Made by a program: the position numbers and the translations under genes. Shown piece after piece: positions 2,934-20,054 of a stretch of DNA of 51,960 nucleotides; position 1 is the stretch's first letter, and each line of letters starts with the position of its first letter. Below the pieces are notes generated by a model that worked only from the letters and a program-made list of their open reading frames with translations, made no database searches and had not been told where the DNA came from. This DNA comes from a phage: the sequence record PZ000615.1. One strand, 5' to 3'.

Positions 2934-2960
2934 CATCTCAACTTAAACAGGAGATTGATT

Positions 2961-3695
2961 ATGAAAGACGTTGCAGACAAAGATACTCACGACGCTTTTG
3001 TCTCATTTGAGCAGATTGAGCGCGAAAACTTCATTACCAACGCGCTTGTTCCTGGGTGCGGTCATTATTCAGCAGTCAAGCCGGATACTTACTACCAGGT
3101 AACTGGCAACCGCTACGCCGGAAGCAAGACACCTGACATCGTTCGTGACCTTTGGGCTACAGATCCAGAAGTGATTGAGTTCATGGAGAAGCGTTTCGGC
3201 AAGTATGATCTTGACGCGGCGGCAAGCGAACAAAACGCGGTCTGTGAAAAGTTCTACGACGAAAAGACCGACTGCCTGAAACGCTGGTGGGGCAAGAACA
3301 AACACGTTTGGCTTAACCCTCCGTACTCACATCCGGACGTCTTTGTCAAAAAGGCAATTGAGCAGATGGAGCATGGAAACCAGATTGACATGCTGCTGCC
3401 TGGTGACAACTCAACCGCATGGTTTGCCGAAGCGCGTCGGAATGCTGCTGAGATTATCTGGATCGAGGGAGATATTGAAACCGACATCGACGGAACTGAG
3501 TACGCCCGAACCGGACGACTTTCTTTCATCTCGGCTCTCACCGGAAAGCCAGTTGACGGAAACAACAAAGGCTCTGTGATCTTTATCATGCGAGAGCTGA
3601 AAGAAGGTGAGAAACAGAAAACTCACTACATCCCAATTACTGAAATTTGCCCAGGCGTGAGCCGCAAGCGTGCTAAAAAACGGAGCGTAAAATAA
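2961..3695 (+). CDS. dam: DNA N6-adenine methyltransferase (phage Dam type)
   Basis: Track ORF 2955..3695 starts at TTG; ATG at 2961 preceded by CAGGAG; catalytic motif WLNPPYSH (NPPY). Confidence 0.8.
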   Translation: MKDVADKDTHDAFVSFEQIERENFITNALVPGCGHYSAVKPDTYYQVTGNRYAGSKTPDIVRDLWATDPEVIEFMEKRFGKYDLDAAASEQNAVCEKFYDEKTDCLKRWWGKNKHVWLNPPYSHPDVFVKKAIEQMEHGNQIDMLLPGDNSTAWFAEARRNAAEIIWIEGDIETDIDGTEYARTGRLSFISALTGKPVDGNNKGSVIFIMRELKEGEKQKTHYIPITEICPGVSRKRAKKRSVK

Positions 3696-11236: not shown

Positions 11237-11281
11237 AATATAACAAAACCCGCCGGAGCGGGTTTATCAAAAAGTGCTATT
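11237..11281 (-). promoter_or_regulatory. Promoter-like cassette (minus orientation) overlapping terminator hairpin
   Basis: Minus strand AATAGCACTTTTTGATAAA, hairpin CCCGCTCCGGCGGG in spacer, TATATT 22 nt after TTGATA; upstream of small membrane ORF. Confidence 0.35.
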
Positions 11282-11960
11282 TTCGATTAGCCTGGAAAAC
11301 TGCACGAGCGAAACCGCGAGGTGTGAGTGACCGTAACTGCTTGGTCTTTGATGACTTGCCTCCGAGGAACTTCCATCCCCAGAAGAACCAGACACCCTCA
11401 TCTTTAGGCAGTTCCATCTTAACTGGCTCCTTGAACCCGTTACCGCACCAGATACAGGTTTTCTTTGTGTACCCATCTCGCAACGGCATTTTAGGATGCC
11501 AGGAACCCTCATCAGCTCCTACGTAATATCCGAAATCGCGAGGGTGGAAATAAAAGTTCGGCTTGCCTAACTTGTCCTCGTTCGACATCTTCCCTACAGG
11601 ATTCTCAATCATCCATGGAATATCAAGTTCCTGGCCTATGTTCTTAACCACTTTCGCACACTCAAGAGCGTAAGCCATTTCATCCTCCTCGCGGAAGTGC
11701 TTAGCGCCGGAATGAGCAAACAGCGTGCAATCAGGGAACCCAAAGATGATGTCAGGGCGCGGAATGCCAAGCAGATCACACTTGATAAGAAAATCCTTAT
11801 CGATCCACATATTGACGTAACGAACCAGAGGGTGATTCATCTTCACGGCGTACTCACCATGATTTCCAGAGTCGGCGTTGAAGCAATACACCGTGTGACC
11901 ATGCTCAGCCCAAGGCAACCCCATAATGCCGGATCCGTCAAAAAGCGACCATACAATCAT
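11277..11960 (-). CDS. Compact DNA cytosine-C5 methyltransferase-like protein
   Basis: Motif I SLFDGSG (FxGxG), motif IV GFPDCTLFAHSG (catalytic Cys), motif VI WMIENPVG (ENV); only 227 aa; stop codon TAG lies inside promoter element copy. Confidence 0.55.
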   Translation of the reverse strand: MIVWSLFDGSGIMGLPWAEHGHTVYCFNADSGNHGEYAVKMNHPLVRYVNMWIDKDFLIKCDLLGIPRPDIIFGFPDCTLFAHSGAKHFREEDEMAYALECAKVVKNIGQELDIPWMIENPVGKMSNEDKLGKPNFYFHPRDFGYYVGADEGSWHPKMPLRDGYTKKTCIWCGNGFKEPVKMELPKDEGVWFFWGWKFLGGKSSKTKQLRSLTPRGFARAVFQANRK

Positions 11961-16069: not shown

Positions 16070-16212
16070 TGATACATATCGGATGGTTGGTAAACGGGAC
16101 GTTCTACCCTGCTAGCGAGGCTAAGCGGGTAGACATGATCAGAGAGTTCAGGGGCGACAAGGTCGACATCGTCGAGGTTTATGCGGAGCGTTATCCATGC
16201 GTAAAATACTGA
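16069..16212 (+). CDS. Small hypothetical protein (47 aa), uncertain
   Basis: ATG overlapping upstream stop, GGAGA SD; overlaps start of next gene. Confidence 0.25.
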   Translation: MIHIGWLVNGTFYPASEAKRVDMIREFRGDKVDIVEVYAERYPCVKY

Positions 16213-16712
16213 TGGTGGCCTCATACGTGGGGCTGTTCACCCTGGCAAACGTGAACGTCGCTATGTTCGGAGTGTGGGTTACACCGTTCAACGCGCTATT
16301 CATTATTGCTGCTGATATGGTGATACGCGACAGAATCCAGTATGACGGCGGAGCGCTTGTTGCAATATTCGCCTCACTGCTTGCTGGTTCTGCAACAATA
16401 GCCATAGTTCCGGATGCAGGTCGAATAGCCATAGCGTCAAGCTTGTCCGTTGTCCTTGCTGGCCTTGCCTCTGCTGTTGCATTTAGGTTGAGGCGTGGGG
16501 ATTTCTACAGAAAGTCATATCAGGCAAATGTGATCGCTGCTGCTGTTGACTCAATCGCTTTCCCTGTGATAGCGTTCGGCTCGGTCATGATGTATGTGAC
16601 ACTCGCGCAGTTTGCAGCCAAAGTCATTGGCGCTTCTGTCATACTCTACTTAATGAAAAGGTGTTTCAATAATGACAGTTCACTTTCACGGCTCTCCAAT
16701 AACGGGCGGTAA
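16197..16712 (+). CDS. YhhQ/VUT-family-like integral membrane protein (putative queuosine-precursor transporter)
   Basis: Multi-pass hydrophobic protein; segments FNALFIIAADMVIRDRI, AFRLRRGDFYRKSYQANVIAAAVDSIAFPVIAF and QFAAKVIGASVILYLM align by eye with recalled E. coli YhhQ; alternative start 16212. Confidence 0.55.
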   Translation: MRKILMVASYVGLFTLANVNVAMFGVWVTPFNALFIIAADMVIRDRIQYDGGALVAIFASLLAGSATIAIVPDAGRIAIASSLSVVLAGLASAVAFRLRRGDFYRKSYQANVIAAAVDSIAFPVIAFGSVMMYVTLAQFAAKVIGASVILYLMKRCFNNDSSLSRLSNNGR

Positions 16713-16719
16713 GGGTGAT

Positions 16720-17493
16720 ATGATGGCTCGCGTTGCATATCGCGGCGCGGGTGCATTCGTATCTTACGCTCACCCAAAGCAGATCAACATGACCCTTGAG
16801 GTTGCTGACGCTGTATGCATAGACAACGGCGCATTCTCAAAGAAGAATACCGGACGCGAGACGGATTGGAACGGGTTTTACAACGACTTTCTCCCAAGGT
16901 TTATCGACCATCCGAAACTCAGATTCTTTGTTATTCCGGATGACATAAGCGGAGACGACCAGGAGAACGACAGGCTTATCCGTGAGCTACCAGCGCACCT
17001 TAAACACAAAGGCGCTCCGGTATGGCACTTGCACGAGAGCATAGATCGCCTTGTTCACCTGGCTAACGAGTGGGAGTATGTATGTCTTGGCTCATCAGGA
17101 GAATACTACTCAATCCGATCCCCTAAGTGGCGAGCAAGGATGGATGAGGCATTCAACGCTCTGATCTCTCGCGGGTATTCTGCTAAGCTTCACGGCCTGA
17201 GGATGCTGGATGGTCGAGTTCTTGGCAATTATCCACTTGACCAGGCCGACTCAACCAATATCGCCATTAATGCGCCAAAGTGGTTATGCAAGCACGTGCA
17301 GATGACTATAGAGGCTTGCCGGATGCAGACGCATTTCAGTAAGTGGATTGACACAACAGATCCGAAGGTAGCTCTTGATAACCTGATCTCTGCCGGAGGA
17401 ACTAAAGAGCAAATGCTATCTCAGAGGTGCGCAATCCTGAAATCGTGCATTGAGTCAGTCAAACCTCCGCATAAGTCTGACTGGTTAAAATAG
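16720..17493 (+). CDS. TGT-fold protein, putative DpdA-like DNA transglycosylase (tentative)
   Basis: Track ORF 16672..17493; probable ATG 16720 after AGGGTGA; CIDNGAF resembles TGT DSGGFQ catalytic-Asp motif, YVCLGSSGEY resembles TGT YAVGGLAVGE; no zinc CxCxxC..H motif; adjacent to YhhQ-like gene. Confidence 0.4.
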   Translation: MMARVAYRGAGAFVSYAHPKQINMTLEVADAVCIDNGAFSKKNTGRETDWNGFYNDFLPRFIDHPKLRFFVIPDDISGDDQENDRLIRELPAHLKHKGAPVWHLHESIDRLVHLANEWEYVCLGSSGEYYSIRSPKWRARMDEAFNALISRGYSAKLHGLRMLDGRVLGNYPLDQADSTNIAINAPKWLCKHVQMTIEACRMQTHFSKWIDTTDPKVALDNLISAGGTKEQMLSQRCAILKSCIESVKPPHKSDWLK

Positions 17494-18540: not shown

Positions 18541-18803
18541 AAAAGGTTGACAAGGGTTTATCTTTCTTTGCTGCGCTGGCTATAGTGGCGGCTATCATCG
18601 GCGGAGCTACAGTGTCCGAGGGCTACAGGATTCACAAGCTGATCAACAGTGTCGATGATGACGGGAAAGTTATCTGTGCTCTGACTGGTAACGAGCGAAC
18701 GCGAACCTATCCGGTGCTGGCTGGTAAGGTAACGGTAATGCAAACAACCCAGGAACAAGAGTATTATTGCGCTCCAGGTAAATTATACTGGGTTGCGAAA
18801 TAG
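18537..18803 (+). CDS. Small protein with N-terminal hydrophobic anchor/signal
   Basis: N-terminal LSFFAALAIVAAIIGGA; stop TAG inside promoter element. Confidence 0.45.
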   Translation: MKKVDKGLSFFAALAIVAAIIGGATVSEGYRIHKLINSVDDDGKVICALTGNERTRTYPVLAGKVTVMQTTQEQEYYCAPGKLYWVAK

Positions 18804-18843
18804 CACTTTTTGTTAAACATACCCGCCGTCGTGCGGGTATTAT
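18799..18843 (+). promoter_or_regulatory. Promoter-like cassette
   Basis: AATAGCACTTTTTGTTAAA; hairpin ACCCGCCGTCGTGCGGGT; TATTAT 18838-18843. Confidence 0.4.
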
Positions 18844-18871
18844 TGTTTTAACGAAACGAAAGGAGCAAATC

Positions 18872-19105
18872 ATGAGTCATGTAATCAACCAGAGAGCTAT
18901 CAACGAAACTCACCGCCAGGTATTGTGGGCTATCTTCATCACTCGCGACGGTCAGCGCTATGCGGTGCGCGATCACGGGTTTAAATGCAACACATACGCC
19001 GAGTTAGACGGGCGTTGGGTTCACACCTCAAACCTGTCAAGCTTCTTGGTCTGGAATGGCGAGTTCCAAGGTCACGACGATATCAGCAGTCTGATCGAAG
19101 AATAG
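18872..19105 (+). CDS. Hypothetical protein
   Basis: Track ORF; AAGGAG SD; stop abuts promoter element. Confidence 0.5.
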   Translation: MSHVINQRAINETHRQVLWAIFITRDGQRYAVRDHGFKCNTYAELDGRWVHTSNLSSFLVWNGEFQGHDDISSLIEE

Positions 19106-19145
19106 CACGAATTGCTAAAACTCAATATTGGTGTTGCGCTATAGT
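19101..19145 (+). promoter_or_regulatory. Promoter-like cassette
   Basis: AATAGCACGAATTGCTAAA; TATAGT 19140-19145. Confidence 0.4.
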
Positions 19146-19175
19146 AACCCCAACAACCAATCAGAGGAAATACCG

Positions 19176-19490
19176 ATGCAAGTATTCATTAAACTCGTTG
19201 ACACCTACTACATGGCGGCTCAGGGTATGGCTGGCGTTATCGTTAAGGGTGAAACCTTAAGCTCACATCCGGATTACGCAGCAAAGTCAGGCGATTCCGT
19301 TTTTGTGGATATCCGCGATATGAGGCCTTTCATGCGTCCTGAGCATCACCATTTGTGTGACGACTGGCTCGATAAGCCGACGCGATACCTGTACACCATC
19401 CCAGGCGTGTATGACACAATGGCAACGTGCGAGGTCGTCGATAACCCGTTTGCGCACTGGAACCGCATCAAGAGCGGCGAACTACACTAA
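19176..19490 (+). CDS. Hypothetical protein
   Basis: ATG 19176 with GAGGAAA SD; track ORF 19128..19490 has an upstream extension. Confidence 0.45.
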   Translation: MQVFIKLVDTYYMAAQGMAGVIVKGETLSSHPDYAAKSGDSVFVDIRDMRPFMRPEHHHLCDDWLDKPTRYLYTIPGVYDTMATCEVVDNPFAHWNRIKSGELH

Positions 19491-19548
19491 GACGATAAAC
19501 CACCAGGGGAGAATTTACTCCCCTCACAACGCGATAGAGGGCGTTTAA

Positions 19549-19860
19549 ATGGCATCAAAAAACAACGAAATTCGACACATCCACGATCTGAAGATTTCCC
19601 CTGAGCATTTCCGAAATGTGTGCCTCGGACTTAAGACGGCAGAATACCGACGCAACGACCGGAATTTTGAGCAGTTCGATACAATCCGGCTGCGCGAGTA
19701 TGACAACGGGCATACTGGAAATGAGATCTCGGCAATTATCACCCACGTTCTGGATCTGGATGAGTTCCATGACTTCCCAGACAATGCGCCATTTGCTGGT
19801 TACGTCATGCTGTCAATCCAGTTAATCAAGGGGAGCCGGAAATGCGCAAGTATCGAATAG
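19549..19860 (+). CDS. ASCH/PUA-like (DUF3850-like) domain protein
   Basis: HDLKISPEHFRNVCLGLKTAEYRRNDRNFEQFDTIRLREYD matches recalled DUF3850 N-terminal pattern. Confidence 0.5.
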   Translation: MASKNNEIRHIHDLKISPEHFRNVCLGLKTAEYRRNDRNFEQFDTIRLREYDNGHTGNEISAIITHVLDLDEFHDFPDNAPFAGYVMLSIQLIKGSRKCASIE

Positions 19861-20054
19861 CTCTAATCGAAACAACATCCGCATTTGGCGATCCAATTAA
19901 GTGCTACGCCGTTCAGGTTCGTGTTGCTCTGTTCTGGTGGGTGACGGTTGAAACGTGCGGTCATCTCTGCCAGGCTCGCTATTGGATCAACAAGAGCGGC
20001 GCTCCACATCGCAAAGAGCATATCATTAAAATCGTGAATAGCACGAAAAGCTAA
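19842..20054 (+). CDS. Hypothetical protein
   Basis: Track ORF; GGGGAG SD; 3' end reads into promoter element. Confidence 0.4.
   Translation: MRKYRIALIETTSAFGDPIKCYAVQVRVALFWWVTVETCGHLCQARYWINKSGAPHRKEHIIKIVNSTKS

Follow-up and report, generated by a model that had tools for sequence, protein, structure and literature searches.

We report that the open reading frame (ORF) at positions 19549-19860 (+ strand) of a 51,960-nucleotide phage DNA (record PZ000615.1; this whole stretch is hereafter the window) encodes a minimal, stand-alone ASCH-type PUA-like β-barrel protein of the DUF3850 family, to which P2 Orf91 and the protein of PDB entry 3iuw also belong. From the pattern of residues conserved in this family, we propose, at a probability of about 0.5, that the protein is a small nucleobase-pocket protein, and possibly a hydrolase, that would act on a modified base, whether free or exposed. 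The window is a complete T1-like siphophage genome of ~52 kb (Drexlerviridae, genus Eclunavirus), and its closest deposited relatives are the Enterobacter phages Ec_L1 and Phc, with ~83-84% nucleotide identity where aligned.

An ASCH-type protein of the DUF3850 family

The ORF begins with ATG, specifies 103 amino acids plus a stop codon, and is preceded by a Shine-Dalgarno-like GAGGG (19537-19541, + strand) that was read from the sequence 7 nt 5' of the start codon and is kept in Ec_L1 and Phc. The protein matches Pfam DUF3850 (PF12961) over residues 11-73 (58 bits, where the gathering cut-off is 22.9; E=1.1e-15), as well as PHROG 986 ('RNA-binding protein'; E=9e-32). The latter alignment spans positions 92-179 of a 253-position profile, which is consistent with the existence of longer, fused family members.

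Orthologues are present in both other Eclunavirus genomes, with amino acid identities of 77% in Ec_L1 and ~60% in Phc. For the Ec_L1 orthologue, gp43, RefSeq has the name 'RNA-binding protein' and UniRef 'DUF3850 domain-containing protein'; that of Phc carries no annotation. Public read-set assemblies encode identical proteins or proteins that are 87-93% identical. Compared with Ec_L1, the ratio of nonsynonymous to synonymous substitution rates (dN/dS, Nei-Gojobori) is 0.13, demonstrating that the gene is under purifying selection, and comparable support is lacking for the opposite-strand ORFs that it overlaps. Small size is the one feature that could suggest a chance ORF with no function; the Pfam and PHROG matches, the orthologues, the dN/dS and the confident fold described below refute this explanation, and we dismiss it. 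A preliminary description of this DNA, made from its letters, had called the same ORF, and the exact ATG start, the GAGGG, the orthologues and the dN/dS uphold that call.

An exhaustive HMMER search returned homologues in 2796 clusters (50% identity, E<=1e-3), and 87 diverse short homologues drawn from it were aligned; the conservation values below refer to this set. When the profile of the 87 homologues was compared with PDB, the sole match was 3iuw (Enterococcus faecalis V583 NP_814290; E=1.8e-28), and we therefore regard 3iuw as a true DUF3850 member and the only solved structure of the family. The relationship of the window protein to 3iuw holds by sequence and by structure, and the next structural matches are the ASCH proteins PH0355, PF0470, YqfB, ZmASCH, EOLA1 and TRIP4. 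The viral predicted structures that match all carry DUF3850 or ASCH labels, and none of them has a known function.

The AlphaFold2 model built on this alignment (mean predicted local distance difference test score, 88.7; predicted TM-score, 0.77) has a structured core at residues 11-92 (19579-19824, + strand), consisting of a strand (11-16), a helix (18-25) and four further strands (31-35, 45-51, 55-69 and 85-92). This strand-helix-strand-strand-long strand-strand topology agrees with the ASCH core described previously, a five-strand β-barrel whose first two strands are separated by one helix (PMC6803910). Residues 70-84 form a clade-specific loop that is modeled with lower confidence. The loop is longer in the Eclunavirus clade than in the DUF3850 consensus, and this clade also has F in place of the semi-conserved G43 and H in place of the semi-conserved Y55; known family members besides 3iuw are P2 Orf91, Wphi orf91 and Ec_L1 gp43. 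The window protein falls short of the threshold of the Pfam ASCH hidden Markov model (HMM; PF04266) with 14.9 bits against 21.2 (E=0.043), and 28 of 46 longer DUF3850 family members match that model at E<=1e-3. In Pfam, DUF3850 is a family separate from ASCH within the same clan. A scan against NCBIfam gave nothing meaningful, and PADLOC models gave 0 families at E<=1.

The preliminary description had assigned the protein to a DUF3850/ASCH fold from the peptide HDLKISPEHFRNVCLGLKTAEYRRNDRNFEQFDTIRLREYD (residues 12-52). This assignment is borne out by the Pfam match, the relationship to 3iuw, the AlphaFold2 model and the GxKxxExR motif; the ASCH/PUA-like fold, whose absence it had named as decisive against it, is predicted with confidence and has ASCH proteins among its structural matches. 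The nucleic-acid binding and frequent recognition of modified bases that it ascribed to such proteins would, for this one, be a family-level prediction.

Conserved polar residues and a candidate activity

The ASCH octapeptide GxKxxExR is present in the window protein as G27-L-K29-T-A-E32-Y-R34 (19627-19650, + strand), as identified by conservation in the 87 homologues and by hhalign, and family-specific residues N36-D37-R38 stand directly after it. Conservation reaches at least 98% at K29, E32 and R34, is complete at D37 and R38 and amounts to 80% at N36, while H12, L14, K15, P18, F21, G27, D44, L48, E50 and G57 are likewise at least 90% conserved or invariant. The family pattern H-x-L-K ... 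G-x-K-x-x-E-x-R-x-N-D-R ... D ... E is complete in the 103-residue protein (H12, L14, K15, G27, K29, E32, R34, N36, D37, R38, D44 and E50).

In EOLA1, TRIP4, ZmASCH and TTHA0113, the GxKxxExR motif lines a cavity between helix 1 and strand 2 (PMC6803910). In the window protein, K29, E32 and R34 of the octapeptide, together with H12, K15, D37, R38, D44 and E50, would form a conserved polar pocket able to hold a nucleobase, either as a free nucleoside or nucleotide or as an RNA or DNA base that is exposed or flipped out. With so many invariant polar residues in a domain of 80 residues, we consider that hydrolytic action on a free or exposed, and probably modified, base is more probable than binding alone.

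Two characterized stand-alone ASCH proteins, YqfB and EOLA1, both of which deacetylate free N4-acetylcytidine, provide a precedent by analogy. Human EOLA1 has been reported to catalyze this reaction via K21/E24/R26, and bacterial members of the EOLA1/TRIP4-like clade have been linked to restriction-modification contexts (bioRxiv 10.64898/2026.08.01.741249). This clade shares with the DUF3850 protein both the fold and the GxKxxExR motif with its K/E/R triad, whereas H12, D37, R38, D44 and E50 are invariant residues of DUF3850's own. In YqfB, the catalytic triad is Lys21-Thr24-Glu74, with Arg26 in addition (PMC9599836), and hhalign aligned K29/E32/R34 with K21/T24/R26 at 87.5% probability. The Lys and Arg are retained, but the nucleophile Thr24 is replaced by Glu32, and Glu74 has no alignable counterpart as the hhalign alignment stops earlier. 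Due to these two differences, the DUF3850 protein is not a YqfB-type N4-acylcytidine amidohydrolase, and we ruled out this identity.

The net charge of the window protein is -3, and the family is slightly acidic on average (median net charge, -1; isoelectric point, 6.3). This slight acidity, which resembles that of YqfB-type enzymes, proteins that did not bind nucleic acid (PMC9599836), speaks for a small-molecule or exposed-base ligand, as does the single fusion of DUF3850 to a dATP/dGTP pyrophosphohydrolase. Other longer homologues carry DUF551, DUF1642 or unrecognized extensions, and taken as a whole the domain fusions of close homologues are uninformative with respect to function. The invariant charged residues, a net charge that is near-neutral to acidic and the YqfB and EOLA1 precedents lead us to favor a small enzyme over a general nucleic-acid binder.

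Several observations weigh against such an enzyme. With Glu at the position of Thr24 and no match to Glu74, and with the invariant K15 appearing to occupy the conserved strand 1 position Ser/Thr7 of EOLA1/TRIP4-like proteins when the hhalign register is extrapolated without gaps, the chemistry may differ from N4-acetylcytidine deacetylation. Mouse EOLA1 was inactive in another study (per bioRxiv 10.64898/2026.08.01.741249), and among other ASCH folds there are readers, nucleases such as the RNase ZmASCH, and glycosylases such as BapA, which acts on 5-hydroxymethylcytosine. Fusions of a ParB-CTPase to DUF3850, which are prophage-enriched and adjoin parA (PMC12704722), would better fit a DNA- or RNA-binding module than a small-molecule enzyme. 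These fusions share the DUF3850 domain with the stand-alone window protein, and the sampled close homologues of the latter contain no Pfam-recognizable ParB domain. The names 'RNA-binding protein' and 'Activating signal cointegrator' found in databases were passed on by annotation transfer, and literature searches on DUF3850 and orf91 found no functional study. Finally, the term pocket here denotes an equivalence of aligned positions and not a measured geometry.

DNA-modification genes and alternative readings

Three DNA-modification genes that the preliminary description had placed in this genome are real: a Dam gene (2955-3695; PF05869), a DNA methyltransferase gene (11277-11960, - strand; phrog_757) and a gene for a 273-residue DpdA-like 'queuine tRNA-ribosyltransferase' (16672-17493, + strand; phrog_887). 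Its suggestion that their presence alongside the DUF3850 gene is more than coincidence did not hold up in the comparisons that follow. No modification gene adjoins DUF3850 in the window, the nearest being the DpdA-like gene at a distance of 2 kb. DUF3850 and DpdA occur together in the window, Phc and Tunavirus LHE71. The Ec_L1 genome has the DUF3850 orthologue, Dam and the second methyltransferase and lacks both DpdA and the transporter gene that accompanies it in the window, and Tunavirus JMPW2 has DUF3850 with DpdA absent from the corresponding region. Conversely, Opt-719 (Rogunavirinae) and SW9 (P2-like) have DpdA with DUF3850 absent from the fetched regions, and DpdA was not found in the fetched regions of T7-like and P2-like DUF3850 carriers. 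All four presence/absence combinations exist among related phages. Among 80 IMG/VR loci recovered via DUF3850 with 10-kb flanks (the query alignment was a 31-sequence subset), 2 had a DpdA-like gene, 1 a window-type Dam and 1 a phrog_757-type methyltransferase. Both DpdA-like co-occurrences are in lambdoid prophages, within their 'ea' accessory region. In view of the frequency of 2 in 80 and the four combinations, we rejected a linkage between DUF3850 and DpdA.

We also scanned neighboring genes against Pfam (150 ORFs within 3 kb of DUF3850 in 47 dereplicated loci), and the top neighbor family was MethyltransfD12, comprising Dam-like N6-adenine methyltransferases. With a purpose-built HMM applied to 83 loci, 21 of 23 D12-type matches lay within 254 nt of DUF3850; a D12-class Dam adjoins DUF3850 in 19 of these loci, or in 21 if the more divergent methyltransferase of L064/L072 is included. 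Stop and start codons overlap in most of these pairs, and both gene orders were seen. This adjacency echoes an earlier description of ASCH domains as recurrent partners of N6A-methyltransferases, either in fusions or in shared operons (PMC4738411).

Nearly all of the D12-adjacent loci are P2/186-like early operons of the arrangement CI / cox / CII / ... / DksA-like / (DUF3850) / Dam / gpA; outside P2-like prophages, Dam adjacency was found in 2 of ~32 locus groups, L025 and L064/L072 only. In the reverse test, anchored on Dam, DUF3850 was present in 6 of 79 loci, and the usual gene 5' of Dam encodes a DksA-like zinc finger. Anchoring on gpA gave 66 loci with full flanks (Dam and DUF3850, 9; Dam only, 47; DUF3850 only, 1; neither, 9) and no association (odds ratio 1.7, Fisher p=1.0), a limited test in that these loci represent a narrow lineage with gpA identity of at least 78%. 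Dam is near-ubiquitous beside gpA, and DUF3850 is an occasional insert in that shared slot. In view of the synteny and of the Dam-anchored and gpA-anchored results, we do not regard Dam adjacency as evidence of a DUF3850-Dam coupling, for which these counts give no statistical support. The tight pairs in P2-like prophages call for caution, as they reflect a shared insertion slot by gene A and not a demonstrable functional coupling. In our preferred explanation, DUF3850 acts independently of the Dam, second methyltransferase and DpdA genes that this phage carries.

The slot between the DksA-like gene and gene A in P2/186-like prophages itself has the character of a DNA-modification island: 56 of the 66 gpA-anchored loci (IMG/VR L170-L247) have a D12 Dam, and the gene directly 3' of Dam encodes gpA in 39 of 75 cases, a PAPS-reductase/DndC-like protein in 12, a DpdA-like protein in 9 and a C5 methyltransferase in 3 (L091-L169, L170-L247).

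These comparisons bear on the possibility that the protein is a modified-DNA reader tied to the modification genes, which would bind N6-methyladenine (made by Dam or the second methyltransferase) or 7-deazaguanine (made by DpdA) in DNA to regulate, protect or discriminate phage DNA. Its PUA-like relatives (EVE, YTH, SRA and some ASCH domains) read modified bases, phages fuse the ParB-CTPase fold either to DUF3850 or to DNA methyltransferases, and the D12 pairs described above, as well as an extra adenine methyltransferase two genes 5' of DUF3850 in Phc, could be seen in the same light. However, the 2-kb distance to DpdA in the window, the free combination of DUF3850 and DpdA, the Dam- and gpA-anchored counts and the rarity of adjacency outside P2-like prophages all argue against it, as does a Kayfunavirus DUF3850 gene that lies between tail genes, with no methyltransferase found in the fetched region. 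Furthermore, no aromatic cage typical of modified-base readers is evident among the residues conserved in the 87 homologues, and the protein shows neither the cage nor the family HMM match by which EVE, YTH and SRA readers are recognized. We consequently judge a reader of this kind improbable. An RNA-binding protein or ribonuclease that, like Zymomonas ZmASCH, acts on RNA, in this case host or phage transcripts or tRNA, corresponds to the PHROG and RefSeq label and is possible, if unlikely. That label is a transferred prediction, the net charge of -3 and the about neutral family are a poor match to RNA binding, and YqfB-type ASCH proteins showed neither RNA-binding nor nuclease activity (PMC9599836). 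Both the 'RNA-binding' label and the reader hypothesis stem from the PUA-like barrel that the DUF3850 protein has in common with the ZmASCH ribonuclease, EVE, YTH, SRA and McrB-N. ZmASCH and the modified-base readers differ from it by extra secondary-structure elements and an identity of 5-15% (for ZmASCH, additional helices and 14%), and none is a family member.

It is also conceivable that the barrel is degenerate, has no nucleobase ligand and functions through protein-protein contacts, as an adaptor or a decoy directed, for instance, at a host factor. In favor of this are the small size and acidity of the protein, its stand-alone form and its place amid small accessory ORFs, a type of gene that often encodes inhibitors. 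Yet ten polar residues at ASCH pocket positions are near-invariant across phages of very different hosts, which is hard to reconcile with lineage-specific binding of a host protein, and no PADLOC match was found; we find such a role very doubtful. Equally speculative is a proposal in which DUF3850 proteins, including P2 Orf91 and the window protein, are a phage-wide class of small proteins that sense, or act enzymatically on, N6-methyladenine or a different modified purine alongside Dam-type methylation by phage or host. They could process modified nucleotides from degraded DNA or RNA or mark methylated phage DNA. The tight DUF3850-Dam pairs, which exist in either order and extend to at least two contexts outside P2, speak for this proposal, whereas the lineage-controlled test found no association. 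If it were true, the protein would be part of a layered DNA-modification strategy together with Dam, the second methyltransferase and the VUT-DpdA 7-deazaguanine cassette described below.

Distribution and genome setting

By tblastn, DUF3850 relatives were found in 501 of 50,697 phage records. In T1-like phages such as JMPW2, the gene is located in the left-end run of small ORFs, and in P2-like phages (P2 Orf91, Wphi orf91) it follows gene A at the end of the early operon. Further carriers are phages of Klebsiella, Yersinia, Vibrio, Enterococcus, Listeria, Clostridium and mycobacteria, and cyanophages. We regard DUF3850 as a phage accessory gene that is autonomous and moves horizontally; both virulent and temperate phages carry it, and their hosts are many. 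In the T7-like Kayfunavirus EcoDS1 (L085 3037-3264), a 75-codon DUF3850 gene lies between tail tubular genes 11 and 12, and this late structural region is an unusual site for a putative gene of nucleic-acid or nucleotide metabolism.

The window gene is a further member of a known and already annotated family, whose Ec_L1 orthologue is already labeled in RefSeq, and by itself it matters little beyond the correct annotation of a small gene. The family is of wider interest: DUF3850 is among the more widespread phage accessory domains, occurring in P2, T1-like, T7-like, Listeria, Enterococcus and cyanophage genomes, and a solved structure combined with a near-invariant putative polar pocket makes its biochemistry a tractable question.

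In contrast to the gene of P2, which closes the early operon, the window gene is part of a long same-strand series of small ORFs (~15.5-24.9 kb) 5' of the terminase genes (~25 kb). The next small ORF (19842-20054, + strand; 70 amino acids; phrog_2010, function not assigned) shares 19 nt with its 3' end, and a similar overlap of 25 nt is found in Ec_L1, which suggests translational coupling.

The 58-nt gap before the gene (19491-19548) contains a conserved G+C-rich hairpin with a 7-bp stem (19505-19524, + strand; RNA fold -19.1 kcal/mol, z=-3.1). No U-tract was seen on the + strand, so the hairpin is not a classical terminator. There is no second copy of the motif elsewhere in the window and no Rfam match to it; Rfam and tRNA scans of the whole window gave nothing. 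Over the three Eclunavirus genomes, the gap is 92% identical, which is above the flanking coding sequence, and the stem in Phc has a compensatory A-U to C-G change.

The extra methyltransferase of Phc is of the N6/N4-adenine type (L082 4303-5016), and no counterpart was found at 18800-19500 of the window, where small ORFs (18872-19105 and 19173-19490) are present instead. The DpdA-like gene of the window, for its part, overlaps a gene (16197-16712, + strand) for a probable VUT/YhhQ-like transporter of 171 amino acids (phrog_4899; weak Pfam Vut_1 match, E=0.0024; homologues named 'VUT family protein'), forming a two-gene cassette at 16197-17493 (+ strand). This cassette is not present in Ec_L1, the Phc copy is 95-98.5% identical, and a VUT-like and DpdA-like gene pair is also found in the Rogunavirinae phage Opt-719 and in Tunavirus LHE71. 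These occurrences suggest a mobile cassette for 7-deazaguanine DNA modification via precursor salvage. Relatives of the DpdA-like protein are found in Pantoea phage MED16 and Salmonella phage 7-11, and as a single query against IMG/VR it returned no close relatives. Salmonella phage 7-11 encodes DpdA, and DpdA-only phages and phage YhhQ homologues have been described previously (PMC6884629).

In the 'ea' region of a lambdoid prophage (L055 6858-8924), a gene for a ParB-like protein (261 amino acids) lies two genes 5' of that for a DpdA-like protein (264 amino acids), and a 198-residue DUF3850-containing protein is encoded ~1 kb downstream. The arrangement of the first two recalls the pairing of DpdA with DpdB, a ParB-like ATPase, in bacteria.

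The window DUF3850 protein itself has a mosaic appearance. Its N-terminal two-thirds are nearest to Ec_L1, whereas the segment DEFHDFPDNAPFAGYVMLSI (residues 71-90) is the same as in Phc and unlike Ec_L1 (window 19549-19860 compared with L001 19183-19497 and L082 5508-5816), a pattern that suggests recombination inside the DUF3850 gene.
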